This document shows positions 12,890 to 46,049 of a stretch of 64,000 bases of DNA, piece by piece; the first letter of the stretch is position 1, and the number at the start of each line of letters is the position of its first letter. Source of the stretch: Candidatus Moraniibacteriota bacterium (GTDB lineage: Bacteria; Patescibacteriota; Minisyncoccia; Moranbacterales; UBA1568). Made by a program: the position numbers and the translations under genes. The notes under the pieces are model-generated. The model searched no databases, was not told where the DNA came from, and was given only the letters and a program-made list of their open reading frames with translations. The DNA is taken from contig JBATNG010000045.1 of assembly GCA_049290235.1 (NCBI GenBank), positions 12,717-76,716 on the forward strand. Direction: 5' to 3'.

Positions 12890-14167
12890 ATGGCCGAATT
12901 TTTTTACAACCTGTTCACGATCGCTTCCGTGGCGAGTGATGTGTGGTTCTATATCATCCCATTCGTCTTCTATCCGGTTTTCATGTTCCTCTGGATGGAC
13001 AGTCGGAATGATATATTTGGCAGCAAGATCGAGTGGGTGCTGCTCGAGATCATCGCGCCGAAATTGTTGGAGAAGAGTCCACACCCGATGGAGCTGATTT
13101 ATTCCGGGTTTGCTGGAGTGATCAAGACGTCATCCGCGTATGAGGAATTCATCCTGGGAGAATTACCGGTCACGTTTTCACTCGAACTCGTGAGTACTGA
13201 GGGGAAAGTACACATGTACATCCGGACGCAGAAAGCCTTCCGCAATCTCGTCGAAGCTCATTTTTACGCGCAGTACCCGGATGTCGAGATTGTCGAAGCG
13301 GAGGATTATGCGAAACAGGTGCCGCGGACGGTTCCCAACAAGGACTGGGATTTGTGGGGGACGGAGTTCAAACTCCTCAAGCCCGATCTCTATCCGATAC
13401 GGACCTATAAATTTTTCGAAGAATCGGTGACCGGGAAAATGCTCGACCCGATGGCGGGGTTGATTGAAACCATGGGCAAGCTCGGTCCGGGCCAGCATCT
13501 CTGGCTACAATTCCTCGCGACACCGGTGAAAGAAGACTGGGGGCCCAAGAAAGGTGCGTTGACCATCGAAGAATTTCTCGGTCATGAGGAAGTGGAGAGC
13601 CCGGGGATTTTCGCGCGTGTTTGGCATGACTTGGCGGATGTCTTTCATAATCTCTTCTCCGGCCTGATGGGGAGCGAGTTGACGTGGACCAGTCAGGAGG
13701 AAGCGGCCAAAGCCGAAGAGCAACCCGTCGAATTCCGGCTCACCCCCGGACAGAAGGATATCCTGAAAGCACTCGAGAGTAATATCGGAAAACCGATGTT
13801 CAAAATCAAGATGCGTCATATTTATCTCGGGAAGAAAGAACATTTTTCTAAAGCGACCGGCGTGTCGGCGTTCATCGGGGCGATCAAACAGTTCAATGAT
13901 CTCTCGATGAACAGTATGATCCCGGATGATATGACGAAGACCTATGCGAGCTATGTCATGGTCGAACCGCGCCTCCGGTATCGGCAGCGGCGGCTTTTCC
14001 GGCGGTACATCACACGCGATACTGATCCTCAGGAGAACCGTTTTATGTTTTCGTCTGAGGAAATGGCGACGATCTACCACCTCCCCGACATGCAGGTACT
14101 CGCTCCGTCGCTCTCTCGCGTGATGACGAAGCGAGGTGGCGCGCCGGGCAATTTACCGGTACAATGA
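12890..14167 (+). CDS. hypothetical membrane-anchored protein (partner of the downstream T4CP-like ATPase)
   Basis: 425 aa. Hydrophobic N-terminus (NLFTIASVASDVWFYIIPFVFYPVFMFLWM) predicts 1-2 TM helices. The remainder is soluble with no recognised domain. It is co-directional with, and 74 nt upstream of, the coupling-protein-like gene. Confidence 0.5.
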   Translation: MAEFFYNLFTIASVASDVWFYIIPFVFYPVFMFLWMDSRNDIFGSKIEWVLLEIIAPKLLEKSPHPMELIYSGFAGVIKTSSAYEEFILGELPVTFSLELVSTEGKVHMYIRTQKAFRNLVEAHFYAQYPDVEIVEAEDYAKQVPRTVPNKDWDLWGTEFKLLKPDLYPIRTYKFFEESVTGKMLDPMAGLIETMGKLGPGQHLWLQFLATPVKEDWGPKKGALTIEEFLGHEEVESPGIFARVWHDLADVFHNLFSGLMGSELTWTSQEEAAKAEEQPVEFRLTPGQKDILKALESNIGKPMFKIKMRHIYLGKKEHFSKATGVSAFIGAIKQFNDLSMNSMIPDDMTKTYASYVMVEPRLRYRQRRLFRRYITRDTDPQENRFMFSSEEMATIYHLPDMQVLAPSLSRVMTKRGGAPGNLPVQ

Positions 14168-14241: not shown

Positions 14242-16377
14242 ATGTCAGAGCTCGATACCAATCCGATCACCGTCTTTGCCAAGACTAATTTCCGAAATCA
14301 GGAGCGAGTTTTCGGAATCAAGGCGGATGATCGCCGTCGGCATATGTATATCCTGGGAAAGACGGGTATGGGCAAGACGAACTTGCTCGAGAATCTGGCT
14401 ATCCAGGATATCCAGCAGGGGCATGGAATCTGTTTCATCGATCCGCACGGTGATGTCGCTCTGAAACTCATCAAGGCGATCCCACCGGAACGTATCAACG
14501 ACGTGATTTATTTCGACCCGGCAGACCAGCATTTTCCGATTGCTTTTAATGTGCTCGAGCAGGTGGGTGCCGACCAGCGTTCAGTCGTCGCATCCGGCCT
14601 TGTCAGTGTTTTTAAGAAAATCTGGGCGGATTCGTGGGGTCCGCGACTTGAATATATCCTCCGCAATGCCATTCTTGCATTGCTCGAATATCCTGGTGCG
14701 ACACTGCTCGGCGTGATGCGCATCCTCGTCGATAAATCGTATCGTGAGCGTGTGATGGAAAAGGTGACGGATCCAGTCGTGAAACAATTCTGGACCGTCG
14801 AATTCGCTGGATGGAATGAGCGTGTGCTTCAAGAAGTCATCTCACCGATTCAGAACAAGGTCGGACAGTTCACGTCCAATAGTTTGATCAGAAATATCAT
14901 CGGACAGCCGACAAGTGCGTTTGACGTGCGGAAAATCATGGACGAGCGGAAGATCCTGATTATGAATCTCGCCAAGGGCAAGATCGGCGAGGACTCGACC
15001 GCACTCCTCGGTGCCATGATGGTCACGAAGATCCAGCAGGCCGCGATGAGCCGAGTCGATACTGTCGAAGAAGACCGGAAGGATTTTTATCTCTATATCG
15101 ACGAGTTTCAGAATTTCGCTACTCTTTCATTTGCGAATATCCTGTCGGAGGCGCGCAAGTACCGACTCTCTCTTATTCTCGCAAATCAGTACATCACCCA
15201 GTTCGAAGAAGAGATTCGTGATGCAATTTTTGGTAACGCTGGGACGATTATATCTTTTCGAGTCGGGGCCATGGATGCAGAGTTTCTCGAGAAGGAATTT
15301 GAGCCTGTGTTCATGTTGAATGATATGGTCAACCTGCCCAAATATCAGATTTATCTGAAGCTCATGATTGATGGGATTGCCGGGGATGCGTTTTCGGCGA
15401 CGACTTTACCGCCAATTCTCGTCGAAACAGAAGGTATCGATGAGAAAGTGATCGCAGTGACCCGCGAACGCTATGCATCCTCGCGAGAAGAAGTGGAGGA
15501 AAAGATCCGGCGTTGGACGGGCATGCTTACGGACGAAGAGAAACAAGCTCTCCGTGCCCCCGTGCCAGTTTCCTCAGCTCCGCGACCGTCGTCTGCCCGG
15601 CCGACTCAACGTACCGCCACAGTCGTTACCCGTCCAGCTGTCCGTGAACGGGTCCCGGCGCATGGGACCGAGAGTATTGTAAAGAGTCGTGACCGGGCGA
15701 CTGATGTCGCGACGCCGCAGCCTGTCACCCAGCCGATCGCGCCGCAGCCGATCAGAGTGAAAGAACCCCAATCTCCAGACGTGGTAACGAAACCAAAGGC
15801 GATCACTGAAGCCATCTCAACACCAACCGCTCCCTTGGTCACTGCTCAATTTGAAAAACCGTCCGTCAGTAAATCTCCAGCACCCGAGGTGGTACCGGTG
15901 GTGATGGCGCCATCTCCGAAGCCAGCGGTCGTACCAGCGATTGAGACGTTTGAAGCTGCAGAGGGAACGCTCGCAACCGAGGCGCCGGTCGAGATCCCTG
16001 AGAAAGTATTGTATCCCGCTGTTTGCGCGACCTGTAGCCTAGAGATCGAAGTCCCTTTTGTACCCGATGCTTCGCGTCCGACTTTTTGTAAGGATTGTCT
16101 GCGCGACTACCAGCGGGCTGTCGCACGGGAACGAAACCAGATAGCTGGGAAACCTGTGGTTGCTGGTGCTTCATCGGCTGAGCCGATACACGAGCAGCCC
16201 CGACGCACGACGGAACACCGTTCCTACGTCCCTGCCCAATATCCTCTGCGGCTTTCCCAGGCGCAATACATCGAACCCAAGAAATTCAAATCGCTCCGCC
16301 GTAAGCCCGATATCAATGTGAGCGCTGTGCGTGCGCTCATCGACGAGGCACGGCAGGGAAAAGACGAGGAGGCTTGA
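14242..16377 (+). CDS. type IV coupling protein-like ATPase (TrwB/TraD/VirD4 family P-loop NTPase) with Pro/Ala/Thr-rich linker and C-terminal zinc-ribbon
   Basis: Walker A ILGKTGMGKTNLL. ICFIDPHGD resembles the IVDPNGD motif of TrwB-type coupling proteins. Walker B with a TraG-D_C-like segment: YLYIDEFQNFATLSFANILSEARKYRLSLILANQYITQFEEEIRDAIFGNAGTIISFRVG. No N-terminal TM segments. The C-terminal 280 aa are low-complexity (P/A/T/V-rich), then CATCSLEIEVPFVPDASRPTFCKDCLRDYQ (CxxC...CxxC). Confidence 0.7.
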   Translation: MSELDTNPITVFAKTNFRNQERVFGIKADDRRRHMYILGKTGMGKTNLLENLAIQDIQQGHGICFIDPHGDVALKLIKAIPPERINDVIYFDPADQHFPIAFNVLEQVGADQRSVVASGLVSVFKKIWADSWGPRLEYILRNAILALLEYPGATLLGVMRILVDKSYRERVMEKVTDPVVKQFWTVEFAGWNERVLQEVISPIQNKVGQFTSNSLIRNIIGQPTSAFDVRKIMDERKILIMNLAKGKIGEDSTALLGAMMVTKIQQAAMSRVDTVEEDRKDFYLYIDEFQNFATLSFANILSEARKYRLSLILANQYITQFEEEIRDAIFGNAGTIISFRVGAMDAEFLEKEFEPVFMLNDMVNLPKYQIYLKLMIDGIAGDAFSATTLPPILVETEGIDEKVIAVTRERYASSREEVEEKIRRWTGMLTDEEKQALRAPVPVSSAPRPSSARPTQRTATVVTRPAVRERVPAHGTESIVKSRDRATDVATPQPVTQPIAPQPIRVKEPQSPDVVTKPKAITEAISTPTAPLVTAQFEKPSVSKSPAPEVVPVVMAPSPKPAVVPAIETFEAAEGTLATEAPVEIPEKVLYPAVCATCSLEIEVPFVPDASRPTFCKDCLRDYQRAVARERNQIAGKPVVAGASSAEPIHEQPRRTTEHRSYVPAQYPLRLSQAQYIEPKKFKSLRRKPDINVSAVRALIDEARQGKDEEA

Positions 16378-17828: not shown

Positions 17829-18339
17829 TCAGGTTGAGGATGACCTGCCTCACCCGTTTGGATGCGGCGAGAAGGTCATTCTTCAGTCCAGTTTCGTCTT
17901 CTGAGGTCGAAATTACAGATGATGCGAGGAGGGTATCCTCATCTAGAAAAATGCAAAGCGATGAAAGAGAAAAAGAAAGCATTTCGGGCAAGGAATGTTG
18001 ATCGAACAGACGATGTCCCACGAAGACTGTTTCCCCAGACACGGATACGAGCAAAAGGTGTGGGTTTCGAGTCGGTGCATCGAAGCATCCATGAGTGATT
18101 TCGCTCACGCGTTGTATGATGGAATGGAATTCGGTTAGCGATAATCTTTTCATGACATCGCCAAACGCTACCGATATGGTAATGTGAGCAGGACTCTGGT
18201 CGAAGACTACAGGTAATAATGCCCTATCAGGGAGCGGGTTCGAACCTGAGTACATTGGCACGGCAAGTCTGCTGCACCATCTCTGTTCCCCACTGTCGTA
18301 TATGGGATGTACGGCTGTTTCAAGCTGAAGGTAGCGCAT
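17821..18339 (-). CDS. hypothetical protein, possibly degenerate 2H-phosphoesterase (LigT/ThpR-like)
   Basis: 172 aa. It contains PAHITISVAFG, resembling the first H-x-T-x motif of LigT/ThpR. The second motif is degenerate (NPHLLLVSV). It overlaps mnmA and mutY by a few nt on the opposite strand. Confidence 0.35.
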   Translation of the reverse strand: MRYLQLETAVHPIYDSGEQRWCSRLAVPMYSGSNPLPDRALLPVVFDQSPAHITISVAFGDVMKRLSLTEFHSIIQRVSEITHGCFDAPTRNPHLLLVSVSGETVFVGHRLFDQHSLPEMLSFSLSSLCIFLDEDTLLASSVISTSEDETGLKNDLLAASKRVRQVILNLIK

Positions 18340-19402
18340 GTCTTTCTCCTTGACTGCAGTTGATGGGAAGGTGCTGGGTCATTCATGCCTGGTTCGGCAT
18401 GAAGAAAAAGTCTACAATGACATGAACACTATGTCAATCCGGCGAGAGAAAATTGCATTCTTTGAGCGAGTACTGCTTGATTTCTTCCGGAAAGCTGGGC
18501 GGGAGCATTTGCCGTGGCGTCGCCCAAAGATCACCGCGTATGAAGTCTGGGTGTCGGAGATCATGCTCCAGCAGACGCAGGTGTCGCGCGTCATCGGCTA
18601 CTACACGCGTTTCCTTGAGCGCTTTCCGACCATTGAATCATTGGCGCAGACGAGTTGGGAAGAATTCCTCCCGTATTATGAGGGCCTGGGCTATTATGCC
18701 CGCGGCCGGAACATGCTTTCCGCGGCCAAAGAAGTCGTCGCTAAGCATCAAGGGAAATTCCCTCGGGATGTCGAAGTCTTGCGAGGACTTCCAGGTATCG
18801 GACCATATACGGCGGCGGCAATCATGAGCTTCGCGTATGGCGATCGGCATTTGGCTTGGGACACGAATCTGAAACGTGTCGTGGGGCGATTCTTTCTTGG
18901 AAATAGGAATGCGGTGATTGATACGGACTACTTTGAGTCAAAGTTTACCAGTTCGAGAAAATCGTTGAATGCGGCACTGATGGACTTTGGCAGCGCGCTC
19001 TGTGTTGCTCGACCAAAGTGTGAAGCATGTCCCTTGCGATCCCGTTGTCTCTACACTCGAGAAGGCGGAAAACAAGAGAAGAGAAAGATGGCAGGGAAAA
19101 TGTTACCCCGGCAGGATTGGGCAAGAGCGGAAGCGGTCGTCATCCTGCATGATAAACACCGGGTCTACTATTCCTCGAAGCGGACGGTATATGCGCCATT
19201 TGTCCTTTCAGCAGGTTACAATACGCGGGCCGACATCAAAGCCTTTTTCCTGAAGCATTATGGGTTGACTCTGGCTGTCCGGCCGCCGCATGCGAAACGC
19301 GTCGAGGGTCAGCAGCCGAAGATCTTCGTCCACGCTCAGATCTTGCTCGGTCAGCCGACTTTTCGCGCTTTCGCCGCCGCTGAAATCACGGGGAAACATT
19401 GA
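18338..19402 (+). CDS. mutY: A/G-specific adenine DNA glycosylase MutY
   Basis: HhH-GPD segment WEEFLPYYEGLGYYARGRNMLSAAKEV...LRGLPGIGPYTAAAIMSFAY. 4Fe-4S cluster loop CVARPKCEACPLRSRC. C-terminal NUDIX-like domain. The true start may be an internal Met (MNTMSIRREK, about 18425). Confidence 0.85.
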   Translation: MSFSLTAVDGKVLGHSCLVRHEEKVYNDMNTMSIRREKIAFFERVLLDFFRKAGREHLPWRRPKITAYEVWVSEIMLQQTQVSRVIGYYTRFLERFPTIESLAQTSWEEFLPYYEGLGYYARGRNMLSAAKEVVAKHQGKFPRDVEVLRGLPGIGPYTAAAIMSFAYGDRHLAWDTNLKRVVGRFFLGNRNAVIDTDYFESKFTSSRKSLNAALMDFGSALCVARPKCEACPLRSRCLYTREGGKQEKRKMAGKMLPRQDWARAEAVVILHDKHRVYYSSKRTVYAPFVLSAGYNTRADIKAFFLKHYGLTLAVRPPHAKRVEGQQPKIFVHAQILLGQPTFRAFAAAEITGKH

Positions 19403-19472
19403 ATCATCCGCACCAGTTTTCTTGGGCGCTATTCTCCGCTATACTGTGGGTGATAGGCGCAAAACGAAACGT

Positions 19473-20534
19473 ATGCAAGTCCGCCATCTCAATGTCTACT
19501 TTTTCTTTCTGATCATGCTCCTGGTGGGTGTGACGGTGTTTTTCATTTTTCAGCCATTCCTCACCGCGATCGTCGCCGCCGCGATCCTCTCAGTACTCTT
19601 TCGGCCGACGTACCAGGCACTCCTCCGGATATCGCCGGGACGACCAGGCAGCGCCTCATTCCTCACTTGTCTCTTGGTTGGGGTCATCATCGTCACGCCG
19701 GTACTTTCGGTGCTCTCGCTCGCGATCGCAGAGGCGAATCATCTCTACCATACGATCGCTGAGGAGCGTTCATTCATCTCGGTGGTAGAAGTCGGGGTGC
19801 AGTCGATCCAAGAGACGTCGCTGGGTCAGATCGTGTTCAAGGATTCCGCGTTCACGACCGAGAGCATCATGGAGGATATCCGGCAGTTTAGCCAAAATGC
19901 CCTGGGGTTGCTCCAGGCGGCCTATCAGAGCGTGACGCACTTTGTTTTCTGGGTCTTCGTGATGTTCTTCACCCTCTTTTATTTCCTCATCGATGGCGAT
20001 CGGGCCTTCCGTCGGCTGATCCAGCTGTCTCCGCTCAAGACCGAACATGAGACTCTGCTCGCGGCCAAGTTTATCTCCATCAGCCGGGCGACCCTGAAAG
20101 GGACCATGGTAGTCGGTGCGATTCAGGGGCTCCTCGGCGGTCTCGCATTTTGGATTGTCGGCGTGCCTTCACCCGCGATCTGGGGACTGCTCATGATTCT
20201 CCTCTCCATCATACCGCTCGTCGGTTCGGCTCTGGTCTGGCTACCGGCAGGCATCATCCTGCTCCTCTTGGGACAAGTCTGGCAAGGGGCCTTTATCCTC
20301 GTCGTGGGTTCGGGTGTCATTTCACTCATCGACAATATCCTCCGGCCGAAGCTTGTCGGCAAAGACACGCAGATGCACCCGCTGATGGTGTTCTTTGCGA
20401 CCTTGGGCGGTATTTCACTCTTTGGTTTGCCGGGTTTCATCATCGGACCGATTATCGTCTCGCTTTTCATGGCGCTCGGTGAGATTTACTCCATCGAATT
20501 CAAAAATCAGTTGGCGGAATACAACAACGACTAA
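19473..20534 (+). CDS. AI-2E family transporter (PerM/UPF0118)
   Basis: Start at ATG 19473 (MQVRHLNVYFFF...). The longer ORF from 19290 overlaps mutY and is Arg/Ser-rich junk. Eight predicted TM helices. Motif GLLMILLSIIPLVGSALVWLPAGIILLL...GPIIVSLF is typical of the family. Confidence 0.8.
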   Translation: MQVRHLNVYFFFLIMLLVGVTVFFIFQPFLTAIVAAAILSVLFRPTYQALLRISPGRPGSASFLTCLLVGVIIVTPVLSVLSLAIAEANHLYHTIAEERSFISVVEVGVQSIQETSLGQIVFKDSAFTTESIMEDIRQFSQNALGLLQAAYQSVTHFVFWVFVMFFTLFYFLIDGDRAFRRLIQLSPLKTEHETLLAAKFISISRATLKGTMVVGAIQGLLGGLAFWIVGVPSPAIWGLLMILLSIIPLVGSALVWLPAGIILLLLGQVWQGAFILVVGSGVISLIDNILRPKLVGKDTQMHPLMVFFATLGGISLFGLPGFIIGPIIVSLFMALGEIYSIEFKNQLAEYNND

Positions 20535-20537
20535 GTT

Positions 20538-21353
20538 ATGCCCACTGCGTGGCAGTCGTTCCCACTCTCGATTGATCCGGTCGCCTTGATGGTTGGCGGT
20601 CTGCCGGTGACCTGGTATGCGATATTTTATATTGCGGGGGTGTTTGTCGCCGCAGTCTATTTCGTGTGGCTCGCTCGTCGGGCAGGGTTGCTCGCCGATG
20701 CCGATGCGACGGTCGAAGTGATCGTCAGTGTCCTGTGGGGCGTGCTCATCGGCGCCCGACTCGGGTATATTGCATTTTATGGCGGGCCAGACTTTATCAG
20801 CGAGCCGTGGAGGATCATCTTGCCGTATGATTTCGACCAAGACCGGTGGGTCGGCATCCGGGGAATGAGTTTCCACGGCGGCCTCATTGGTGGCGCAGTG
20901 GGGCTCTTCATGTTCACTCGCGAGCGAAGGCGCGGATTCCTCCCGTTCTCGGATTCCCTCGTTCAGGCTGTGCCGTTGGCCATCATTTTCGGCCGAATCG
21001 GAAACTTCCTCAATCAGGAGATACTTGGGCGTTCGACCAGTCTGCCGTGGGGGATGTATTTCCCAGGCTCGGGGTCGCTGCTCCATCCCGTCGTACTCTA
21101 TGAGGCGGCAACCGAAGGGGTGATTTTGTTCCTGGTGCTGGCGGCCCTGAAGCCGCTCCAGATGGCGCCGGGGCGCATGACGGTGGTCTTTCTGTTCCTC
21201 TATGCGGGTATCCGTTACCTGATGGAATATTTCCGTGCCGTTCCACACACACTGGTCTTTGGTATATTCACGACCGGCCAAGCCCTTTCCGTGGCGTTGG
21301 CGCTCTCTGGAGCGGTCATCCTCCTGGCGACCCGGAAACGCGTGGTATACTGA
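20538..21353 (+). CDS. lgt: prolipoprotein diacylglyceryl transferase
   Basis: Lgt signature IIFGRIGNFLNQEILGRSTSLPWGMYF and the conserved HPVVLYEA region. A 342-aa antisense ORF over the same span is rejected. Confidence 0.9.
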   Translation: MPTAWQSFPLSIDPVALMVGGLPVTWYAIFYIAGVFVAAVYFVWLARRAGLLADADATVEVIVSVLWGVLIGARLGYIAFYGGPDFISEPWRIILPYDFDQDRWVGIRGMSFHGGLIGGAVGLFMFTRERRRGFLPFSDSLVQAVPLAIIFGRIGNFLNQEILGRSTSLPWGMYFPGSGSLLHPVVLYEAATEGVILFLVLAALKPLQMAPGRMTVVFLFLYAGIRYLMEYFRAVPHTLVFGIFTTGQALSVALALSGAVILLATRKRVVY

Positions 21354-21365
21354 AAACAACACTCT

Positions 21366-21743
21366 ATGGAAAAGAAACACGGCATCATGCTCGCGGTTGG
21401 TCTCGTCGTTATCGTTGGCGGTCTCATCTGGTGGGGGCTGCATGAAGACGGAACAAAAGCGTCACTCGATCAGTCCGTCACGACCTATTTTTATGGCGAG
21501 ACCTGTCCGCATTGTCTCGATGTTCAGAAATTCCTCGATGAGAATAAAGTCGCGGAAAAGTTCAGTTTCGTGAAGCGTGAAGTGTGGAGCAACCGGTCCA
21601 ATGCGGCGCTGATGCGCGAGGCGGCCGGCATCTGTGCCTTGAATAGCCAAGAGATCGCTGTGCCGTTTGTTTTTTCAGCCGGCCAGTGCCTGGTCGGGAC
21701 GCCCAAAGTCATCGAATTTTTCAAACAAAAAGCCGGTATCTGA
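21366..21743 (+). CDS. membrane-anchored thioredoxin-fold protein (CxxC)
   Basis: N-terminal TM helix MLAVGLVVIVGGLIWWGL, then YFYGETCPHCLDVQKFL, a CPHC redox motif in a glutaredoxin/thioredoxin-like context. Confidence 0.6.
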   Translation: MEKKHGIMLAVGLVVIVGGLIWWGLHEDGTKASLDQSVTTYFYGETCPHCLDVQKFLDENKVAEKFSFVKREVWSNRSNAALMREAAGICALNSQEIAVPFVFSAGQCLVGTPKVIEFFKQKAGI

Positions 21744-21978
21744 ACTCATGCGCGAAATCGTCCCGCCCAAAGCGAAGCCTATATCGCACGCCAAGATGCT
21801 CTTCGATGGCGTAGCGCATGGTCGCGAATACTGCTCACCGCGGCCGGGTTCGGCACCACGTCCACTTGTTTCACCGGCGATGATTCGGGCGAGGCGTCAA
21901 TTGGATGCGGTGTTGTTGAGAGAATCAACTGCTTCTCACAGCCGTTTTTTCGGGTTCCAGCGTCGGTGGAAGAAATGG

Positions 21979-22737
21979 ATGCTCTTTCGGCGGGTGTTCG
22001 TGATTTCGCGTCGCATCAGTCGTCGTGTCGGACGGCTATTGCCAGCGCCAGGGAATCTGTCGCCGAAAAAAGCGCTCTATGCCTCGCTCTTCGCGGGGGT
22101 GAGTTTCGGCATGGTGTCGATGTCGGTCATCCAGGATGTGAGCGGAGATGAAGCCAATGCGGGTTCGCCGGCACCGGTGGCGGCCGTGGCTGAGTCGGAT
22201 GAAACCTCGAAAATCGCCAAAGAACTCTCCGAAGAGAAGAAGAAGTATGATCCGAATGACGATCTCTTTCTCCAGTTCTTCAGCGAGGCTGAGAAGGAGG
22301 AATACCGCGATCAGATCCAGGAGCTCGTCAAAGGCTATCCGATCGAAGACATGCTGCCGTACATCCTCGAGAAAGACCGGATCGTGGCAGCTTTCCTCAT
22401 CGGTATCGGCAAGAAAGAGAGCAATTGGGGGAAACGGGTCCCGGTGCTCGATGGTCAGGACTGCTTCAATTACTGGGGCTATCGGGGGGTGCGGCGATTG
22501 ATGGGAACAGGTGGGCATACCTGTTTCAATAGCCGCAAAGACGCGGTCGATACGGTCGCACTTCGGATCGAGTCGCTCATCTACTCGTCCAAAATCGACA
22601 CCCCGGCCAAGATGATTATCTGGAAGTGCGGCTACAGCTGTGACGGCCACTCTCGAGAGAGCGTCCGGAAATGGATTGCCGACGTGGACATGTATTTCAA
22701 GGAGTTGAACCAAGCTGAGGGTGGTCCGATCGATTAG
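21979..22737 (+). CDS. secreted Cys-containing protein, paralog 1 (possible lysozyme-like/Rpf-like fold), start uncertain
   Basis: The C-terminal 150 aa align with the downstream paralog: KGYPIE.M.P.I.E.DR..A.LIGI.KKESNWGKRVP...DCFNYWGY.G...GH.CF...IWKCG.SC..HS.ESVRKWI.DVD.YF. The ATG at 21979 has GGTGGA 9 nt upstream and yields an Arg-rich n-region followed by the hydrophobic ALYASLFAGVSFGMVSMSVI. The ATG at 21748 is possible but gives Arg-rich junk. Confidence 0.55.
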   Translation: MLFRRVFVISRRISRRVGRLLPAPGNLSPKKALYASLFAGVSFGMVSMSVIQDVSGDEANAGSPAPVAAVAESDETSKIAKELSEEKKKYDPNDDLFLQFFSEAEKEEYRDQIQELVKGYPIEDMLPYILEKDRIVAAFLIGIGKKESNWGKRVPVLDGQDCFNYWGYRGVRRLMGTGGHTCFNSRKDAVDTVALRIESLIYSSKIDTPAKMIIWKCGYSCDGHSRESVRKWIADVDMYFKELNQAEGGPID

Positions 22738-22789
22738 CTCGGTCAAAATCCTGGAGTCTTGACTTACTGATTTTATATGTCGTAGTATC

Positions 22790-22816
22790 GACTGCCTTAG
22801 CGGGCAGTTTTATTGC
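22790..22816 (+). terminator. Rho-independent terminator after paralog 1
   Basis: ACTGCC-TTAGC-GGGCAGT followed by TTTTATTGCTTG. Confidence 0.5.
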
Positions 22817-22943
22817 TTGTATAAGCCAGAAAGTCGTATTTTTTTGGCAAAAAACCTTTGACCGAGCGAGCTGAAAATGCTATCCTCAGGTTTGTGTCCC
22901 AAGTGGGATTCGCCAGAAAAAGATGTATTCTTAACGTTTTTCT

Positions 22944-23699
22944 ATGCGTATTTTCCGGGGAGTTTCGGTCGTCTGGCAGCGCAAGAATCAAGGTCGAATA
23001 CTCCAACCTTGCCAGGCCCTCAGCCTCGTTGGTCTGTTGTTTCTTTCCTTTAGTCCGGTAGCAGTCGGGTCAAGTAATCCAGACACGGACGTGCAGCCGA
23101 ATTCCGCGAGTCGTCAGGTGAGTCTCTGTGATTGGCAGCGGGACTATGACTTCTTCACCGATACGGCGAAGACAGAGAAAGTCGAGTCGTCACCCTGCGA
23201 ACAAGTATTCCCTCAGTCGGCGGGATCCAGGAGTGCCGACTCGTCACAGGAGAAGACAGTGAGCCATGAAAAAAAAGCGTTCGAGGCCGAGCTCCGAGCC
23301 ATCGTCAAGGGCTACCCGATCGAAGTGATGGTCCCTGTGATTGCGGAGTATGATCGGGACATCGCGGGTCTCATCGTCGGTATCGCCAAGAAAGAGAGTA
23401 ATTGGGGCAAACGCGTCCCGCGGACATCCGGCGGGGACGACTGTTTCAATTATTGGGGGTACAAAGGGGCAGGCGCGCGCGGTGTCGCGATGGGGCATGG
23501 CTGTTTCGGCGAATCAGCGGAGGCGGTGCACGCGATCGGTGGTCGATTACAAGAGCTCACGCGACTTCGGCAGACGAGCGAACCAGCCAATTTGACCATC
23601 TGGAAATGTGGTTCGTCTTGCGCGAGTCATTCGCCTGAAAGCGTCCGGAAGTGGATCTCGGATGTCGACTTGTATTTCCGCGCCATCGCTCGGAAATGA
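22944..23699 (+). CDS. secreted Cys-containing protein, paralog 2
   Basis: 251 aa. Signal-peptide-like ILQPCQALSLVGLLFLSFSPVAVGSS. It shares the KGYPIEVMVPVIAEYDRDIAGLIVGIAKKESNWGKRVP...DCFNYWGYKG...GHGCF...IWKCGSSCASHSPESVRKWISDVDLYF core with paralog 1. Confidence 0.6.
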   Translation: MRIFRGVSVVWQRKNQGRILQPCQALSLVGLLFLSFSPVAVGSSNPDTDVQPNSASRQVSLCDWQRDYDFFTDTAKTEKVESSPCEQVFPQSAGSRSADSSQEKTVSHEKKAFEAELRAIVKGYPIEVMVPVIAEYDRDIAGLIVGIAKKESNWGKRVPRTSGGDDCFNYWGYKGAGARGVAMGHGCFGESAEAVHAIGGRLQELTRLRQTSEPANLTIWKCGSSCASHSPESVRKWISDVDLYFRAIARK

Positions 23700-23759
23700 C
23701 AGTGTCGAGTCCTGGGGCCGGATGAGGTTGAGGTGGCCGCGGTGACGATCGGGTAGGGT

Positions 23760-23797
23760 GCTCCACGGTTACATTGGTGGGGTGGTATACTAGAGAC
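23760..23797 (+). promoter_or_regulatory. extended -10 promoter (TGGTATACT) for the permease gene
   Basis: TGGTATACT at 23783-23791, about 20 nt upstream of the ATG at 23811. The same 9-mer recurs at 43146-43154 and 52177-52185. Confidence 0.5.
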
Positions 23798-23810
23798 AAA
23801 AGAAAATCCC

Positions 23811-24749
23811 ATGCACTGGCTTACTTTCGCGCTTGCGGGCTATTTTTTCAATGCGGTCACCGTTCTCTTCGATAAGTTTCTCCTGGCTGGCCGGATCAAG
23901 GAGCCGGTAGTGTATGCCTTTTTCGTTTCTATCCTGTCGCTCTTCGCGATTGTTCTCGTACCATTCGGTTTTCAACCGATCCCGTGGCAGACAGTGGTCG
24001 TGTTCGTGATCTCCGGTATGCTGTTCCTCTACGGCTTGGTGGCGTTTTATAATGCCGTGCAGCGCAGTGAAATCTCGCGTGTTGCACCGCTGGTCGGTAT
24101 CACGGTTTCCGTCATCGCGGGTGTCGCCTCGCTCGCGTTCGGTCCGGCGGCCTATGTCACGCTGTCTCCCGGCCACTTCTTCTCGCTGCTGCTGATCCTG
24201 GCTGGGGCTTTCCTCATCGCGTTTGACCTCCCCCTGAAGAAGAATGATGCGCTCATGAAGTCGACCCTCTTGGCCGGGGCACTCATGGCGCTCTCGCTCC
24301 TCTTCTTGAAGACCGGTTATCGGAATGCGGATTTCGTGAACGGCCTCCTCTGGTCGCGGCTGGGATTCATCATTGGTGGCTTCAGTCTCTTCATCATTCC
24401 CGACTATCGCCGCGTTATCCTGGAGAACACGCGTGGCCTCTCTTCATCCAATCGGCGCGACGTCTCAACCGGGATTCTCTTTGTCCTCAACAAGATCTTC
24501 GGCGGGATTGCGACTTTTTTCCTGACTTACGCGGCCTTCCTCGGGCCGGTGACCTTTATCCAGGCGTTGAACGGCGTCCAGTATGCCTTTGTGCTTGTCC
24601 TCGCGATCCCGCTCGCGTTCCGCTACCCGAAGGTCTTCGAGGAGAAGCTCTACTTCTGGGATTGGTTCCAAAAGGGGTTGGCCGTCATCCTTATCGCGCT
24701 TGGGATGTGGCTGGCCGTGACCCAGGGGGCCGATTTCCTCTTTCTCTAA
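23811..24749 (+). CDS. polytopic membrane protein, possible DMT/EamA-like permease
   Basis: 312 aa with about 10 TM helices in two halves. No sharp motif, so the family assignment is tentative. Confidence 0.45.
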   Translation: MHWLTFALAGYFFNAVTVLFDKFLLAGRIKEPVVYAFFVSILSLFAIVLVPFGFQPIPWQTVVVFVISGMLFLYGLVAFYNAVQRSEISRVAPLVGITVSVIAGVASLAFGPAAYVTLSPGHFFSLLLILAGAFLIAFDLPLKKNDALMKSTLLAGALMALSLLFLKTGYRNADFVNGLLWSRLGFIIGGFSLFIIPDYRRVILENTRGLSSSNRRDVSTGILFVLNKIFGGIATFFLTYAAFLGPVTFIQALNGVQYAFVLVLAIPLAFRYPKVFEEKLYFWDWFQKGLAVILIALGMWLAVTQGADFLFL

Positions 24750-24753
24750 ACGA

Positions 24754-25812
24754 ATGGATAGTGAAATGAAAAATCTACCTCCAGCCCCCATTCGTTCACT
24801 GTGGCGCGGCGTGATCAAAGTGATCGGGTACACGCTCCTCGGATGTATTCTCCTGGTCGTGCTTCTCTTTGGGTACTTCAATCTGCCCGGACCGGCGCCG
24901 CGCGAAGACATCCATCTTGGCATGACTTTTTCATCGCGCTATGCGACTGATCTGGGTTTGGATTGGCACGAAACCTATCTTGCCCTCCTCAATGACATCG
25001 GGGTGAAGAAACTTCGGCTGCCAGTCTATTGGGATCTCACCGAGAAAGAAAAAGGGGTATATGATTTTACTGATCTCGACTGGCAGTTAGCTGAAGCCAA
25101 AAAAAATGGTGTCACTGTGATCCTGACGGTGGGTATCAAAGTACCCCGCTGGCCGGAGTGTCATATCCCACCGTGGGCTCGGGACGATACGGCACTGCGC
25201 CAGGCGGGGATACTCCGTTTCATCCGCGAGACTATCGCTCGATACCGGGACGATCCGACCGTCGTGAAGTGGCAGGTTGAGAACGAGCCATTTCTCAGTT
25301 TCGGCGTCTGTCCTGCTTTTGATGTTTCCTTTCTCGAGCAAGAAGTCGCGCTCGTGAAGACGCTGGACCGAACGCGACCGGTACTCCTGACCGATAGCGG
25401 CGAGTTGTCCGTCTGGTTCGGGGCCGCGAGCCGTGGCGATGAATTCGGTACGACACTGTACCGGGATATTTACAGCAAACATGCCGGCGGTTATTTCACG
25501 TATCCGGTCGGGCCCAATTTCTTCTGTGCCAAAGAATTGCTCGTCCGACTGCTCACCGATCAAAAACATTTTTCAGTCATCGAACTCCAGGCTGAGCCGT
25601 GGGCGAGCGGCTGGGTCGCCAATGTGCCGCTCGAGGAACAGTTCATCACGATGAATGAAAAGCGTCTCGAGGACAATGTCACCTATGCGAGGCGCGTCGG
25701 ATTCGAGGATATCTACCTCTGGGGCGGCGAGTGGTGGTATTGGCTGAAAACCAAGAAAGAGTATCCAGCTGTTTGGGAGAAGGGGAGAGAGTTATTCCAG
25801 CGGTATCCGTAA
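24754..25812 (+). CDS. membrane-anchored glycoside hydrolase (clan GH-A TIM-barrel, cellulase/mannanase-like)
   Basis: N-terminal TM helix, then a TIM-barrel-like domain with KWQVENEP (the NEP acid/base motif of clan GH-A) and a later ELQAEPW region consistent with a nucleophile Glu. Confidence 0.5.
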   Translation: MDSEMKNLPPAPIRSLWRGVIKVIGYTLLGCILLVVLLFGYFNLPGPAPREDIHLGMTFSSRYATDLGLDWHETYLALLNDIGVKKLRLPVYWDLTEKEKGVYDFTDLDWQLAEAKKNGVTVILTVGIKVPRWPECHIPPWARDDTALRQAGILRFIRETIARYRDDPTVVKWQVENEPFLSFGVCPAFDVSFLEQEVALVKTLDRTRPVLLTDSGELSVWFGAASRGDEFGTTLYRDIYSKHAGGYFTYPVGPNFFCAKELLVRLLTDQKHFSVIELQAEPWASGWVANVPLEEQFITMNEKRLEDNVTYARRVGFEDIYLWGGEWWYWLKTKKEYPAVWEKGRELFQRYP

Positions 25813-25818
25813 CCATGC

Positions 25819-26328
25819 ATGATCCTCATCCTCGACAATCTCCGGAGTGCGTACAATGTCGGGGCCCTGTTCCGGTCGGCGGATGGCGTGGGTGTGACGC
25901 ATGTCTATCTGGTCGGGATTACGCCTGTCCCACCCAAGAAGGGGCAGCTCTTTCTCTCTGCGGCCGAGAAAGCATTGCAAAAGACGGCGCTCGGTGCCGA
26001 GTCGGTCATACCGTGGTCGAGCGTGAAATCCCTCGCCCGTCTCATCGCTCGGCTCAAACGTGACGGGTATGAGATCATCGCACTCGAGGAAGGATCGGCC
26101 AGAGCGAGTCTCGACTATCGGGCTTGGCGTCCCAAGCGCGGGTATGAGCCGGCCTTGATCGTCGGCAATGAAGTCACCGGTCTGGATGAGAAAGCACTCG
26201 CGTGTGCGGACACCCTCCTCCATCTGCCGATGCGGGGGATGAAACATTCGCTCAATGTGTCCGTGGCGGGTAGTATTGCTATGTACCACCTCTCGGCTAC
26301 AATGGAAATGAGAGTCTCTCGTGACTAG
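25819..26328 (+). CDS. SpoU/TrmH-family RNA 2'-O-methyltransferase
   Basis: LDNLRSAYNVGALFRSADGVGV...LIVGNEVTGL...HLPMRGMKHSLNVSVAGSIAMY are SPOUT motifs I-III. Confidence 0.85.
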   Translation: MILILDNLRSAYNVGALFRSADGVGVTHVYLVGITPVPPKKGQLFLSAAEKALQKTALGAESVIPWSSVKSLARLIARLKRDGYEIIALEEGSARASLDYRAWRPKRGYEPALIVGNEVTGLDEKALACADTLLHLPMRGMKHSLNVSVAGSIAMYHLSATMEMRVSRD

Positions 26329-26405
26329 GGGATAGTAGCTAGTGACTAGTTACTAGTGTTTAAGAAACGCGCTTACTCTAGTCACTCTTTCTGCTCAAGT
26401 CACTC
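26320..26405. promoter_or_regulatory. cluster of GTGACTAG/CTAGTCAC repeats (putative operator) upstream of the HAD-IB gene
   Basis: GTGACTAG or its reverse complement CTAGTCAC occurs at 26321-26328, 26342-26349, 26378-26385 and 26397-26404, plus the near-palindrome CTAGTTACTAG at 26346-26356. Confidence 0.4.
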
Positions 26406-26420
26406 ATAACTTCTGGAATA

Positions 26421-27155
26421 ATGAAAAAAGAAAACAAACCGAAGAAAATCGCCATCTTTGATATCGATGGCACGATTTTCCGGAAGAACCTCCACTTCGA
26501 ACTCATCAACGAACTCGCGTGGTTGAAGGTTTTTCCGAATTCGGTCCGGCATGAGTTGACCGAGGTGTACAGTCATTGGCTCGAGCATTCCGGTACGTAC
26601 GAAGAGTACCGCAAGGCCATCGTCCGCATCTATGCCGAGCATATCGCTGGAGTGTCGGAGGCGTCCGTCCGTGAGGCGGCGCACATCGTCGTGCCGTTCC
26701 ATGCCAAGCGGACCTATCTCTTCTCGGAGGCGTTGCTCAAGGATCTCCGCGCCAAGAACTATCACCTGCTCGCGATTTCCGGTTCGCCCATCGAGATCGT
26801 CGAGGAGTACAATGAACACTACCTCCACTTCGATCGAGTCTTCGGGAGCATCTACTCGCTGGATGCTGACAGAATATACACGGGCGTGGCGGAGTTTGAG
26901 CCGTCGCGGAACAAGGGTGAAGTGCTTCAACAGTATGCCTATGAGCACGGACTCTCACTGGAGGATTCCTACGGTGTCGGGGATACCGAAAGCGACGCGA
27001 GCTTTCTCCGGATGGTGACGCATCCGATCGCCTTCAATCCCAATCAGAACCTGAAAGCGATGGCCGACACCGAGGGCTGGCGCATCGTCATCGAGAAGAA
27101 AGATGTGATCTATGAGATAGGCTCAAAATCCGAAGCTCGAAACCAGAAATTCTAA
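26421..27155 (+). CDS. HAD-IB family hydrolase (phosphoserine phosphatase-like)
   Basis: IAIFDIDGTIF (motif I), AISGSPIEIVEEY, GVGDTESDASFL (motif IV). Confidence 0.8.
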   Translation: MKKENKPKKIAIFDIDGTIFRKNLHFELINELAWLKVFPNSVRHELTEVYSHWLEHSGTYEEYRKAIVRIYAEHIAGVSEASVREAAHIVVPFHAKRTYLFSEALLKDLRAKNYHLLAISGSPIEIVEEYNEHYLHFDRVFGSIYSLDADRIYTGVAEFEPSRNKGEVLQQYAYEHGLSLEDSYGVGDTESDASFLRMVTHPIAFNPNQNLKAMADTEGWRIVIEKKDVIYEIGSKSEARNQKF

Positions 27156-27187
27156 ACGGATACGCGCTACAACTGCTAGATATCCCT

Positions 27188-27550
27188 ATGGACAGCACAG
27201 AGAAAAAATATGATTTGGAAGAGCGAACACTGGCCTTCGCGCGCCGAGTCAATGCCTATGTAAACGGACTGCCGCGCACTATCTCGAATATCGAAAATGG
27301 GAAGCAGCTTGTCCGTTCGGCTGGTTCTGTGGGAGCTAATTACATCGAGGCGAACGAAGGATTGAGTCGCAAAGATTTCCTGATGAGAGTAAAAATTTCA
27401 AAAAAAGAAGCGAAGGAGAGTTTGTATTGGATGGAACTTAGCCAACCCAAGAAAGAACGGGAGACCGAAAAAGAAGCACTGATTCTGGAATGTACAGAAC
27501 TCATGAAAATCCTCGGTGCTATTATTAAGAAAGTTCATCCCGGAGGATAA
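27188..27550 (+). CDS. four-helix-bundle protein (TIGR02436; 23S rRNA intervening-sequence protein family)
   Basis: 120 aa. RVNAYVNGLPRTISNIENGKQLVRSAGSVGANYIEANEGLSRKDFLMRVKISKKEAKESLYWMEL is the hallmark of this family. Confidence 0.85.
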   Translation: MDSTEKKYDLEERTLAFARRVNAYVNGLPRTISNIENGKQLVRSAGSVGANYIEANEGLSRKDFLMRVKISKKEAKESLYWMELSQPKKERETEKEALILECTELMKILGAIIKKVHPGG

Positions 27551-27719
27551 GTATTTGTTTAGAGTTTCGGATTTCTTATTTTAGTTTTCATTACCCTATG
27601 GCCTTCAATCTCAATAGTTCGCTCGATAATTTCCTGAAGAAGACGCTTTGGCTGTGGTTGCCGTTTTACGCGTTCCAAGCGCTCCTGAAAGAATTCGGCG
27701 CAGAGCTTAGGGGGAGAAA

Positions 27720-28148
27720 ATGAGCGCGACGTTGAGTATGAGCGAACCCGTATCCGCCAGAGACATCCAGTGCCGACGCTGGCTCCTCATCCTGTGGTGT
27801 GCCGTCATTTTCGCGTTTTCCCAGATGCCGGGGAGTGGACGAGCGATCGAACCGACGGCGTGGTATATCGTCGAGCGCAAATCGGCCCATGTCTTCGAGT
27901 ACGCCATCCTCGCTCTCCTCAGCTTCCGCTTCTTCGCGGCAGTTTACTCACGTGAAGCGTTCATCCGGATCGCCGCGCTCGTCATTGCGTTCGGTCTTGC
28001 CTATGGTGCACTCGATGAACTGCACCAGGCCTTCATATTCGGCCGGGGGGCACGGCTCACCGATGTCGCGATCGATGGTCTCGGTATCGTCTTTGCCCTA
28101 GCTATTATCTATTGGTTGCGAAGCGGCAGAACAACGACGAGATATTAG
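27720..28148 (+). CDS. VanZ-family membrane protein
   Basis: GGGGGAG 4 nt before the ATG. Four TM helices. ALDELHQAFIFGRGARLTDVAIDGLG matches VanZ-like. Confidence 0.7.
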   Translation: MSATLSMSEPVSARDIQCRRWLLILWCAVIFAFSQMPGSGRAIEPTAWYIVERKSAHVFEYAILALLSFRFFAAVYSREAFIRIAALVIAFGLAYGALDELHQAFIFGRGARLTDVAIDGLGIVFALAIIYWLRSGRTTTRY

Positions 28149-43691: not shown

Positions 43692-44747
43692 ATGGCCGAA
43701 GTCGAACTGCCGATCAAACCGTTCAAGCCCCAATGGCCGAAAATCGTGCTCGCGGTGTTTGTACTGGCGGTGGTGCTCGCGATCGGTGTCCTGGTTTTGG
43801 TCTACAAAAAGCCGGAAAGCGCAATCGGAGCGATGCTGGCGAACCGCTTCCCTTTCCCATTGGTCCTGATCGGCCAGGGCGTGGCGGTGACGACCGAGGG
43901 GCTGGCTGAAAACCGCGAGGCGCTTCGGAATTTCTATGAATCGCAGGATTTCGCCGGTCTCGGGATGCGGGTTGATTTCACGACCGACGATGGCAAGAAA
44001 CGGTTGAAGATCCGCGAGAAGGATCTGATCAATAAAATGCTCGAGGACAAGGCGATCGAACTCCTCGCTGGGAGACGGGGCATCGCAGTGACCAGCGATC
44101 AAGTCGCCAGTGAGACGACCGTGAAGATGAAAGAACTCGGCACGACGGACAAAGTCGAGGAGACGCTCGCTCGGCTGTATGGCTGGACCATCGCTGATTT
44201 CCAAACTCAGGTCGTCCGTCCGGCGATGTATGAAGCGGCGCTTTTCCAGACGTACCAGTCTGAAGTCGATCAAACCGCGGCCAAGGACAAAATAGAGGCA
44301 GCAGAAAAGGCTCTCAAGACAAAGAAGCCGTTTGATGAGGTCGCGCGGAGTTTCTCACAAGGTGAGACGAGGGCCGCCGGCGGTGACCTTGGCTGGTTCC
44401 GGCTCGAGGATCTCGCCCCAGAGCTCCGGAGCCCGGTCGACAATGCCCAGCTCAAGATCCCGACGGACATCGTCGAGAGTCCGCTCGGCTATCATATCCT
44501 GCTCGTGGAGGACACGAAGCTCGAAGATGATGTACGCCGCTATCATATCCGGCAGATCTTCACGCGCAAGCTGAGTTTCGCTGATTGGCTCGCAGGAGAG
44601 TTACGCCAGTTGCCCGTGAGTGTCATTTCCGATGACTATGAGTGGCAACGTGATGCGGCGCGGATCGAATTCCGCTCGGCCGAGATGCGGGCCTTTGAAG
44701 TAAAACTGCGCGAGAATGCCAAGAGCGATCCTTCGCTTATTTTCTAA
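43692..44747 (+). CDS. membrane-anchored parvulin-type peptidyl-prolyl isomerase (PpiC/SurA-like)
   Basis: N-terminal TM helix. Parvulin domain GGDLGWFRLEDLAPELRSPV...PTDIVESPLGYHILLVED. The 331-aa antisense ORF 43278-44273 is rejected. Confidence 0.8.
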   Translation: MAEVELPIKPFKPQWPKIVLAVFVLAVVLAIGVLVLVYKKPESAIGAMLANRFPFPLVLIGQGVAVTTEGLAENREALRNFYESQDFAGLGMRVDFTTDDGKKRLKIREKDLINKMLEDKAIELLAGRRGIAVTSDQVASETTVKMKELGTTDKVEETLARLYGWTIADFQTQVVRPAMYEAALFQTYQSEVDQTAAKDKIEAAEKALKTKKPFDEVARSFSQGETRAAGGDLGWFRLEDLAPELRSPVDNAQLKIPTDIVESPLGYHILLVEDTKLEDDVRRYHIRQIFTRKLSFADWLAGELRQLPVSVISDDYEWQRDAARIEFRSAEMRAFEVKLRENAKSDPSLIF

Positions 44748-44765
44748 TCATTCATCATCAACCCT

Positions 44766-46049
44766 ATGTCTGATGAACAGCGCGATTTTTCTGTCCCTGC
44801 GGGGGCGTCCGAGGAACGGATCGCTCGACCGGTGACGCGGCGAGAGCAAACGCCGTGGCTGCGGATACTGCTACTTTCATTTGTCTTCGGACTGACCGGT
44901 GGGATGCTCTCGCGTCCCGATGCGCTCGTGAGTCTCGTGAAATACTTCCGTTCCGAAGGGCCATCCAAGACGGTCAGTCAGGTACCGTCGCTCGAATCCG
45001 TGCCACTCGAGGACCGAGCAATCGTCGGAGTCGTGGAGCGCGGGTCGCCAGCGGTGGTGAGCATTGTCATCACCAAGGATGTGCCGAAGGTGCGAAACTC
45101 TTTCCGCTCTCCATTTGGCCTCCCGTTTTTCAGTAATCCCTCCGACCCAGCGGATGATGGCAGCGGAGCCTCTACCAAACAGACGGTCGGGAACGGATCG
45201 GGTTTTCTCGTGAGTTCGGATGGCTATATCGTCACGAACAAGCATGTCGTCTCGGATGCGAAGGCGGAGTACACGGTCATCACGAGCGACAAGAAGGAAT
45301 ACCCGGCGACGGTCCTCGCGCTCGATCCCGTGAATGATGTTGCGGTGATCAAGGTGAACGGCGATGCGTTCCCGGCCCTCTTACTCGGTGATTCGGATAC
45401 GATCCGGGTGGGACAGACAGCGATCGCGATCGGCAATCCGCTGGGGGAATTTGCGAACTCGGTCTCGCGCGGTATCATTTCCGGTCTCAAGCGGCAAGTC
45501 ACGGCTGGTGTGACATTCGGCCAAGAGGAAGTCCTCCGCGATATCATCCAGACGGACGCAGCCATCAATCCGGGGAATTCCGGCGGTCCACTCCTCAACC
45601 TCGCGGGCGAAGTGATCGGCGTCAATGTCGCGGTCGCGCAGGGGGCGGAGAATATCGGTTTCGCGATTCCCGTGAACCAAATCAAGCGGGCCGTGGACGA
45701 GGTGAAGCGGACGGGGAAGATCGCCGTTCCGTATCTGGGGGTACGCTACATCCTCCTGGATGAGGGGATCGCGAAGGCGGCTGGTCTGCCGGTCACGTAT
45801 GGTGCGCTGATCCAGCGGGGACAGACGATCACGGATCTCGCTGTCGTCCCGGGATCGCCGGCGGACAAGGCTGGCCTCCTAGAGAATGACATCATCCTCG
45901 AAATCGATGGGAAGAAGATCGACAGCGAGCATCCGCTCGCGAATATCATCGGCAGCCATCAGGTTGGTGACACAGTGGAACTGAAGATTCTCCATCAAGG
46001 CGATGAGGAAACCCGATCCGTCAAGTTAGAGGAGCGAAAGATCCAGTAA
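44766..46049 (+). CDS. htrA: HtrA/DegP-family serine protease with PDZ domain
   Basis: Catalytic triad in context: IVTNKHVV (His), NDVAVIKV (Asp), INPGNSGGPLLN (Ser). C-terminal PDZ domain (GALIQRGQTITDLAVVPGSPADKAGLLENDIILEIDGKKI). Confidence 0.9.
   Translation: MSDEQRDFSVPAGASEERIARPVTRREQTPWLRILLLSFVFGLTGGMLSRPDALVSLVKYFRSEGPSKTVSQVPSLESVPLEDRAIVGVVERGSPAVVSIVITKDVPKVRNSFRSPFGLPFFSNPSDPADDGSGASTKQTVGNGSGFLVSSDGYIVTNKHVVSDAKAEYTVITSDKKEYPATVLALDPVNDVAVIKVNGDAFPALLLGDSDTIRVGQTAIAIGNPLGEFANSVSRGIISGLKRQVTAGVTFGQEEVLRDIIQTDAAINPGNSGGPLLNLAGEVIGVNVAVAQGAENIGFAIPVNQIKRAVDEVKRTGKIAVPYLGVRYILLDEGIAKAAGLPVTYGALIQRGQTITDLAVVPGSPADKAGLLENDIILEIDGKKIDSEHPLANIIGSHQVGDTVELKILHQGDEETRSVKLEERKIQ

Follow-up and report, generated by a model that had tools for sequence, protein, structure and literature searches.

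Two adjacent genes, here called geneA and geneB, lie on the forward strand of a contig assigned to Candidatus Moraniibacteriota (JBATNG010000045.1, assembly GCA_049290235.1), of which a stretch of 64,000 nucleotides (the window) was analysed. GeneA (21748..22737, +; 329 aa plus stop) encodes a predicted bitopic membrane protein and geneB (22944..23699, +; 251 aa plus stop) a predicted secreted or N-terminally anchored one. We propose, with a probability of roughly 0.6, that they form a pair of divergent, cysteine-rich, GH73-like wall glycosidases that remodel or split the cell's own wall in growth or division. Judged by fold, by sub-threshold hidden Markov model (HMM) matches and by profile–profile alignment, their nearest relatives appear to be the GH73 N-acetylglucosaminidases FlgJ, AtlA and LytB.

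The GH73-like domain with the lysozyme fold is predicted at residues 182–325 of geneA (22291..22722, +) and residues 109–248 of geneB (23268..23687, +). The proposed general acid is Glu224 in geneA (codon 22417–22419) and Glu151 in geneB (codon 23394–23396), and both domains carry four cysteines (Cys239, 259, 294 and 298 in geneA; Cys167, 187, 222 and 226 in geneB). A first-pass annotation of the window had described the two C-terminal domains as paralogues of about 50% identity. Alignment agrees with this description (140 residues, 50% identity, E 4e-51), and the motifs quoted at the time, KKESNWGKRVP, DCFNYWGY, GHxCF and WKCGxSCxxHSxESVRKWIxDVDxYF, are found in both proteins. The motif it gave as 'ESxxNW' has to be corrected, as the actual string is E-S-N-W-G.

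AlphaFold2 (AF2) models were obtained for geneB from 33 sequences, with block means of the predicted local distance difference test (pLDDT) mostly at 65–96 in the domain region, and for geneA from 84 sequences, with a mean pLDDT of 72.8. The predicted fold is lysozyme-like, as in GH73, with a helical lobe containing a central helix and a beta-hairpin lobe that together form a substrate groove. The paired comparison figures were 6.9 and 8.6 for LytB, 6.9 and 7.2 for FlgJ, 6.6 and 6.7 for AtlA, and 8.2 and 8.4 for the lytic transglycosylase 7lam. The earlier suggestion of an extracytoplasmic protein with a lysozyme-like fold and a conserved catalytic Glu is thus upheld by the predicted fold and by the invariance of the Glu in KKESNWG. 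The outcomes named beforehand as refuting it (no lysozyme-like fold together with no conserved acidic catalytic residue, or a match to a known non-enzymatic family) did not arise.

The NCBIfam FlgJ muramidase models were matched below threshold by 30 of the 33 family members, around KKESNWG...NYWGYK (best E 7.8e-6). Profile–profile comparison with hhalign was made against a GH73 profile of 11 sequences (E. coli FlgJ and ten phage GH73 domains), a target picked after the first hints toward GH73. The full-length family alignment matched this profile with a probability of 66% over 58 columns, and a domain-only profile (154 sequences) with a probability of 95% (E 3.6e-8, 117 columns). Against E. 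coli FlgJ alone, the family gave a probability of 81% (E 1.2e-5). The real profile scored 52, compared with at most 16 for each of 30 column-shuffled controls. These alignments equate E151 of geneB and E224 of geneA with the GH73 general-acid Glu of ESGWG, NYWGYK with NLFGIK, and CFGSPEEAV with FRxYxSxxES.

The named nearest system is therefore taken to be GH73 (PF01832: FlgJ, AtlA, LytB, Auto, Acp and the domain of the phage endolysin Ecd09610, PDB 8yxk). The geneA/geneB family shares with it an E-S-x-W-G context around an invariant Glu that ends the central helix, then a strand of the form N-x-[FW]-G-x-K and a helix of the form F-x-S-x-x-E-A/S, as well as a predicted extracytoplasmic location and, likely, a peptidoglycan substrate. 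In GH73, the general acid is a strictly conserved Glu with which the central helix ends (StFlgJ E184, AtlA E212), and clusters 1 and 2 have a second catalytic Glu in the hairpin (StFlgJ E223, AtlA E246) (PMC4752226, PMC9108991). Conservation of this hairpin Glu is confined to part of GH73, and YATD is a signature motif of the family (PMC9108991). Substrate assistance is a possible mechanism (PMC4752226, PMC9108991).

Several observations weigh against the proposed assignment. Compared with GH73, the geneA/geneB family is missing about 16 residues of the hairpin, and with them the second Glu; in the hhalign alignment this deletion falls exactly where the GH73 profile has its invariant hairpin Glu. 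YATD is replaced by G-[S/Y/F]-S-C-x-x-H-S(-P), in which the position of the YATD Tyr is Ser in geneB, Tyr in the window's geneA and F30/Y21/S14 across 65 A-type orthologues. With both the hairpin Glu and YATD missing, the chemistry may differ from that of GH73, or binding of peptidoglycan may be all that the proteins do. Around the hairpin and CxxxC loop, the AF2 models reach only moderate pLDDT (block means 57–59), falling below 50 at residues 247–255 of geneA. A Foldseek search of the full-length geneA model against PDB returned nothing significant, the best lysozyme or transglycosylase rows having E 7–10. Sequence searches of PDB with phmmer found nothing, and a profile search of PDB gave spurious sigma-factor and VP35 rows only (E ≥0.1). 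Pfam PF01832 (Glucosaminidase) was hit by one of the 33 family members, with E 0.29. No curated model was reached at threshold, geneB scoring 14–15 bits with the NCBIfam FlgJ models compared with cut-offs of 193–606 bits. Finally, the putative role on the cell's own wall is read from genomic context.

Because the family lacks two defining features of GH73 and reaches the threshold of no curated model, we file it as a distant, GH73-like homologue and not as a member of GH73. Two further differences set it apart: its four invariant cysteines, and a family profile that stays at 298 representatives and does not run into the large GH73 family. To our knowledge, no characterised GH73 enzyme has four invariant cysteines. 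Neither protein matched a PHROGs family, no precomputed Pfam domain is recorded on the family proteins, and they are called 'hypothetical protein' wherever the source gives a name.

The resemblance to Rpf and lytic transglycosylase domains seen in the first-pass annotation holds at the superfamily level, although these are not the closest match, GH73 being nearer. Rpf domains, too, are small, secreted and lysozyme-like, and they have a catalytic Glu and a disulfide; neither a match to the Pfam Transglycosylas model nor an Rpf structure among the nearest folds was found. A lytic transglycosylase would use a single Glu as acid and then as base, with attack by the MurNAc C6-OH yielding 1,6-anhydroMurNAc and no second carboxylate involved. 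The deletion of the GH73 hairpin Glu agrees with such a scheme, and so does the sole invariant acidic residue, which is followed by Ser as in the family-1 E-S motif. Nevertheless, the best fold matches and the only sequence-level links go to GH73, and the ES-x-WG ... N-x-[FW]-G-x-K context is GH73-like. No Pfam family, the SLT domain included, matched either protein, and GLMQ and AYNAG-type motifs, which are known from family-1 lytic transglycosylases, are not visible on direct reading. For the wider group of family-1 lytic transglycosylases and goose-type lysozymes (Slt70, MltE, Cj0843c; GH23), we detected no sequence-level signal to SLT models, and unlike GH23-type enzymes, the geneA/geneB family has a GH73-type motif pattern after the Glu and a hairpin with a putative cysteine staple. 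We therefore regard lytic transglycosylases as an unlikely identity for the pair.

Conservation was assessed in 152 of the 298 representatives clustered at 50% identity. In geneB numbering, E151, S152, G155, P159, N169, W171, G172, C187, W220, K221, C222, G223, C226 and W237 are invariant, and C167 is present in 151 of the 152. Variable positions include His185 (H92/Y58), His229 (H121/D19 and others) and Asp166 (D124/E10 and others), and no acidic residue is invariant within residues 167–188. Such a pattern bears on whether the domains are inactive peptidoglycan-binding or regulatory modules, or have a Cys4 metal or redox-switch site as their functional centre. The absence of the second catalytic Glu and of YATD would suit an inactive module, as would the geneA domain being conserved far more tightly than usual wall hydrolases, which may mean many interaction constraints. 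The four invariant cysteines would fit a metal site as well as disulfides. However, a pseudoenzyme would not be expected to keep the Glu and its ES-x-WG context strictly invariant in 152 diverse representatives. The CPHC oxidoreductase encoded next to the pair is in line with disulfide formation, and variation is seen at the His residues that might complete a Cys/His site. This explanation is distinctly unlikely in our judgement, and a catalytic GH73-like pair is preferred.

It had been noted before that each protein contains four conserved cysteines. This is correct for the shared domain (151–152 of 152), but the exported part of geneB has six. The two extra residues, C62 and C85, belong to a B-type motif, C-x-W-Q-x-D...FF...P-C (residues 62–85; 23127..23198, +), which is present in at least 90% of B-type alignment sequences and absent from geneA. 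Immediately upstream of geneA, with its stop codon 4 nt before the geneA start, is a gene for a predicted membrane-anchored protein of 125 aa with a thioredoxin/glutaredoxin fold (21366..21743, +). It has an N-terminal hydrophobic helix (residues 3–27), a Pfam Glutaredoxin match just below the cut-off (E 3.3e-4) and a CPHC motif (Cys codons 21504–21506 and 21513–21515). CPHC is the active-site motif of DsbA-type disulfide oxidases. Among orthologues of this upstream gene, the active-site motif is CPHC in 42 out of 45 and CSHC in the other three, and the gene was found directly upstream of geneA in 44 of the 62 tandem loci with enough upstream DNA (phmmer, E≤1e-3). Its product is a candidate extracytoplasmic disulfide oxidoreductase serving the cysteines of geneA and geneB. 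The four invariant cysteines most likely form two disulfides. Disulfides are favoured over free thiols because of the adjacent CPHC gene and the even numbers of extracytoplasmic cysteines (four in geneA, six in geneB). A Cys2His2 metal site is made less likely by the variation at His185 and His229, while a Cys4 metal site is possible.

Both domains are predicted to be extracytoplasmic. GeneA begins with a basic region, predicted to be cytoplasmic (residues 1–108; 21748..22071, +), followed by a hydrophobic helix, an acidic linker and the domain. The basic region contains 25 K/R and 5 D/E residues, a W..FRRV..RR..R motif kept in orthologues and a long AF2 helix (residues 43–97; block-mean pLDDT 74–96 over residues 61–100). 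The single transmembrane helix, ALYASLFAGVSFGMVSMSVI (residues 109–128; 22072..22131, +), has Kyte–Doolittle values above 1.5 in a 19-residue window and corresponds to an AF2 helix at residues 106–131; orthologues conserve the segment. Following the positive-inside rule, the excess of K/R over D/E in the first 108 residues leads us to predict an N-in, C-out bitopic membrane protein. GeneB starts with a basic n-region and a hydrophobic segment (residues 1–44; 22944..23075, +), which may be a signal peptide or a signal anchor. Its hydropathy windows span residues 19–44 (segment about 23–44), and the preceding 18 residues have five K/R and no D/E. The view that both are signal-peptide proteins consequently stands for geneB, with its N-terminal signal or anchor, but not for geneA, which has a cytoplasmic tail and one transmembrane helix. 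The presence of lgt two genes upstream also prompted us to consider lipoproteins. On direct reading, a lipobox (L-[ASTVI]-[GAS]-C) is absent from both proteins, no Cys follows the hydrophobic segment of either, and C23 of geneB precedes it.

In the mechanism we propose, the glycan strand of peptidoglycan would sit in the groove between the helical lobe and the short beta-hairpin (DCFNYWGY...GHxCF). The invariant Glu (E224 in geneA, E151 in geneB) would protonate the beta-1,4 glycosidic oxygen, as homology suggests. Lacking the hairpin Glu, the reaction might proceed through substrate assistance, through a less conserved Asp (D238 in geneA, D166 in geneB) or by a route like that of lytic transglycosylases. 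Two disulfides, putatively installed by the upstream membrane-anchored CPHC oxidoreductase, would stiffen the hairpin and the loop that replaces YATD. GeneA would act at the membrane and geneB further out.

The family is small and lineage-restricted, nearly all labelled members being Moranbacteria. A profile of 33 members searched against 1.84 billion proteins retrieved 298 representatives (clustered at 50% identity). When one genome per species was scanned (185,579 species), 348 stretches proved to encode a relative. Among the best 80 of these 348 loci, 36 are labelled Moranbacteria/Moraniibacteriota, 4 Patescibacteria group and 35 'uncultured Bdellovibrionales' metagenome-assembled genomes (MAGs), and 5 carry other labels. 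Many of the Bdellovibrionales-labelled MAGs (L015–L017, L019, L023 and others) have Moranbacteria-type synteny, and their geneB is 41–69% identical to that of the window. The label on these third-party assemblies (TPA) is probably an artefact, because so many of them carry the same synteny. A phage or mobile origin was also considered; no relatives were found in IMG/VR viral contigs or INPHARED phage genomes.

The A-then-B tandem occurs on one strand in 65 of 83 loci; the other 18 are mostly cut by contig ends, and a few genomes have B apart from A. In many Moranbacteria MAGs the tandem belongs to a conserved, single-strand block of 11 housekeeping and envelope genes, in the order MutY-like, AI-2E transporter, Lgt, Grx-like, A, B, 312-aa membrane protein, GH-like TIM-barrel, SpoU, HAD and VanZ. 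The block spans 18338–28148 (+) in the window and is also present in loci L001, L003 and L015–L094. The conserved housekeeping synteny and the membrane anchor are the reasons why a housekeeping role on the cell's own wall is the probable one.

The first-pass annotation had also raised an attack on a partner cell, which found no support, the same synteny and anchor pointing to the own wall. The idea would make geneA and geneB secreted or surface weapons with which an episymbiotic or parasitic cell breaches the wall of a host or competitor. It is in keeping with the predicted location of both domains outside the cell and with the membership of the organism in the candidate phyla radiation, many members of which are thought to live attached to other cells. 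Nonetheless, geneA is anchored in the membrane with a cytoplasmic tail, and the adjacent genes (Lgt, AI-2E transporter, SpoU, HAD and similar) include no immunity-like or secretion-system gene. Antagonistic effectors are typically variable and mobile; this pair keeps a fixed syntenic position across the lineage and is under very strong purifying selection. A weapon is thus very unlikely, and own-wall remodelling or splitting is retained as the proposed role.

A comparison of dN/dS between the paralogues, proposed earlier as a check, proved uninformative because synonymous sites are saturated (pS 0.73), and orthologue comparisons were used instead. Among the closest orthologues (L001, L015–L022), the geneA domain (22291–22722) has 94–99% amino acid identity with saturated synonymous sites (pS 0.64–0.89), and dN/dS is about 0.01–0.02 for close pairs where computable. 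For the geneB domain, amino acid identity is 79–88% and dN/dS about 0.04–0.11. The constraint on the geneA domain is unusually tight, far stronger than expected for a peptidoglycan hydrolase. GeneA and geneB are ancient paralogues: the duplication implied by the first-pass annotation is not a recent one, as each paralogue is separately conserved across the lineage. Fixed differences between them cluster in the hairpin loop at residues 174–183, which reads R-G-[VI]-R-[RK]-[ML]-M-G in A and K-G-A-G-x-R-G in B. Since this loop is a wall of the predicted substrate groove, the paralogues may differ in substrate or partner.

In bacteria of the candidate phyla radiation, genomes are tiny, the envelope is poorly understood, and little has been learned about division and cell separation. 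The analysis provides a fold-level assignment, as putative GH73-like wall glycosidases, and a candidate catalytic residue for a conserved 'hypothetical protein' pair. Literature searches for GH73 or peptidoglycan hydrolases of Patescibacteria brought up no work on this family. The two genes are concrete autolysin candidates for one lineage of the radiation. The family also shows a GH73-type site diverging down to the general-acid Glu alone, which bears on the unsettled mechanism of GH73. The impact in practice is modest, since lysozyme-like wall enzymes are, as a broad function, of a well-known kind.

A bolder and doubtful extension of this reading would place the family on a distinct, lineage-specific branch of the lysozyme superfamily, either a new CAZy family or a deep subfamily of GH73. 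Such a branch would have a shortened, disulfide-locked version of the catalytic hairpin, which is normally mobile, and cleave with a single carboxylate, through substrate assistance or in the manner of lytic transglycosylases. A, tethered to the membrane and carrying a conserved cytoplasmic helix, would then make up with the exported B an obligate two-part autolysin and the core glycan-cutting machinery of Moranbacteria division, possibly gated by redox through the CPHC protein.

The gene models differ in one respect from those first drawn. Two adjacent open reading frames (ORFs) had been recognised, and their strand (+) and ends (22737 and 23699) are borne out; the start given for geneA does not stand, the ATG at 21979 being its internal Met78. 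We place the true start at the ATG at 21748 because an alignment of the window with orthologues on two other contigs runs from Met1, the gene calls in those contigs are 323–329 aa long, and an identical NCBI protein (P0269, 'hypothetical protein', Candidatus Moraniibacteriota) has 329 aa. GeneB orthologues start at the same Met as geneB.

The spacer between the genes (22738..22943, +) is 206 nt long, and its length is 64–355 nt in 61 of the 65 tandem loci. In a consensus scan it contains a terminator-like hairpin (22790–22809, +) and a promoter-like site with a TG extension (22858–22886, +), and geneB may therefore have its own promoter and be transcribed separately from geneA. Some wall hydrolases are controlled by c-di-AMP riboswitches. 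A riboswitch or other RNA element was sought in the spacer and upstream, and Rfam gave no match at E≤1 across 21200–24000.

Downstream of geneB, 23811–24749 (+) encodes an apparently multi-pass membrane protein of 312 aa with no Pfam or NCBIfam match, and this gene follows geneB in nearly every locus with downstream DNA. The next gene (24754–25812, +) encodes 352 aa with an N-terminal hydrophobic segment and weak partial matches to the GH42 (E 1.4e-6) and GH35 (E 2.3e-7) beta-galactosidases; its product may be a membrane-anchored TIM-barrel glycosidase, conserved downstream of geneB. In the window's copy of the block, a 23S-rRNA-IVP-family gene (27188–27550) is located between HAD and VanZ.

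Elsewhere in the window, 14242–16377 (+) encodes a homologue of TrwB/TraG-like (VirD4-type) coupling proteins that has a treble-clef zinc finger, adjoined by an ORF of 425 aa (12890–14167, +) for which neither Pfam nor NCBIfam gave a match. Genes for two HtrA-like trypsin-PDZ proteases are located near each other at 44766–46049 and 46828–48045 (+), and a PPIC-type rotamase gene (43692–44747) is found upstream of them. From their annotation, the rotamase and HtrA-like genes look like a further cluster for envelope protein quality control.

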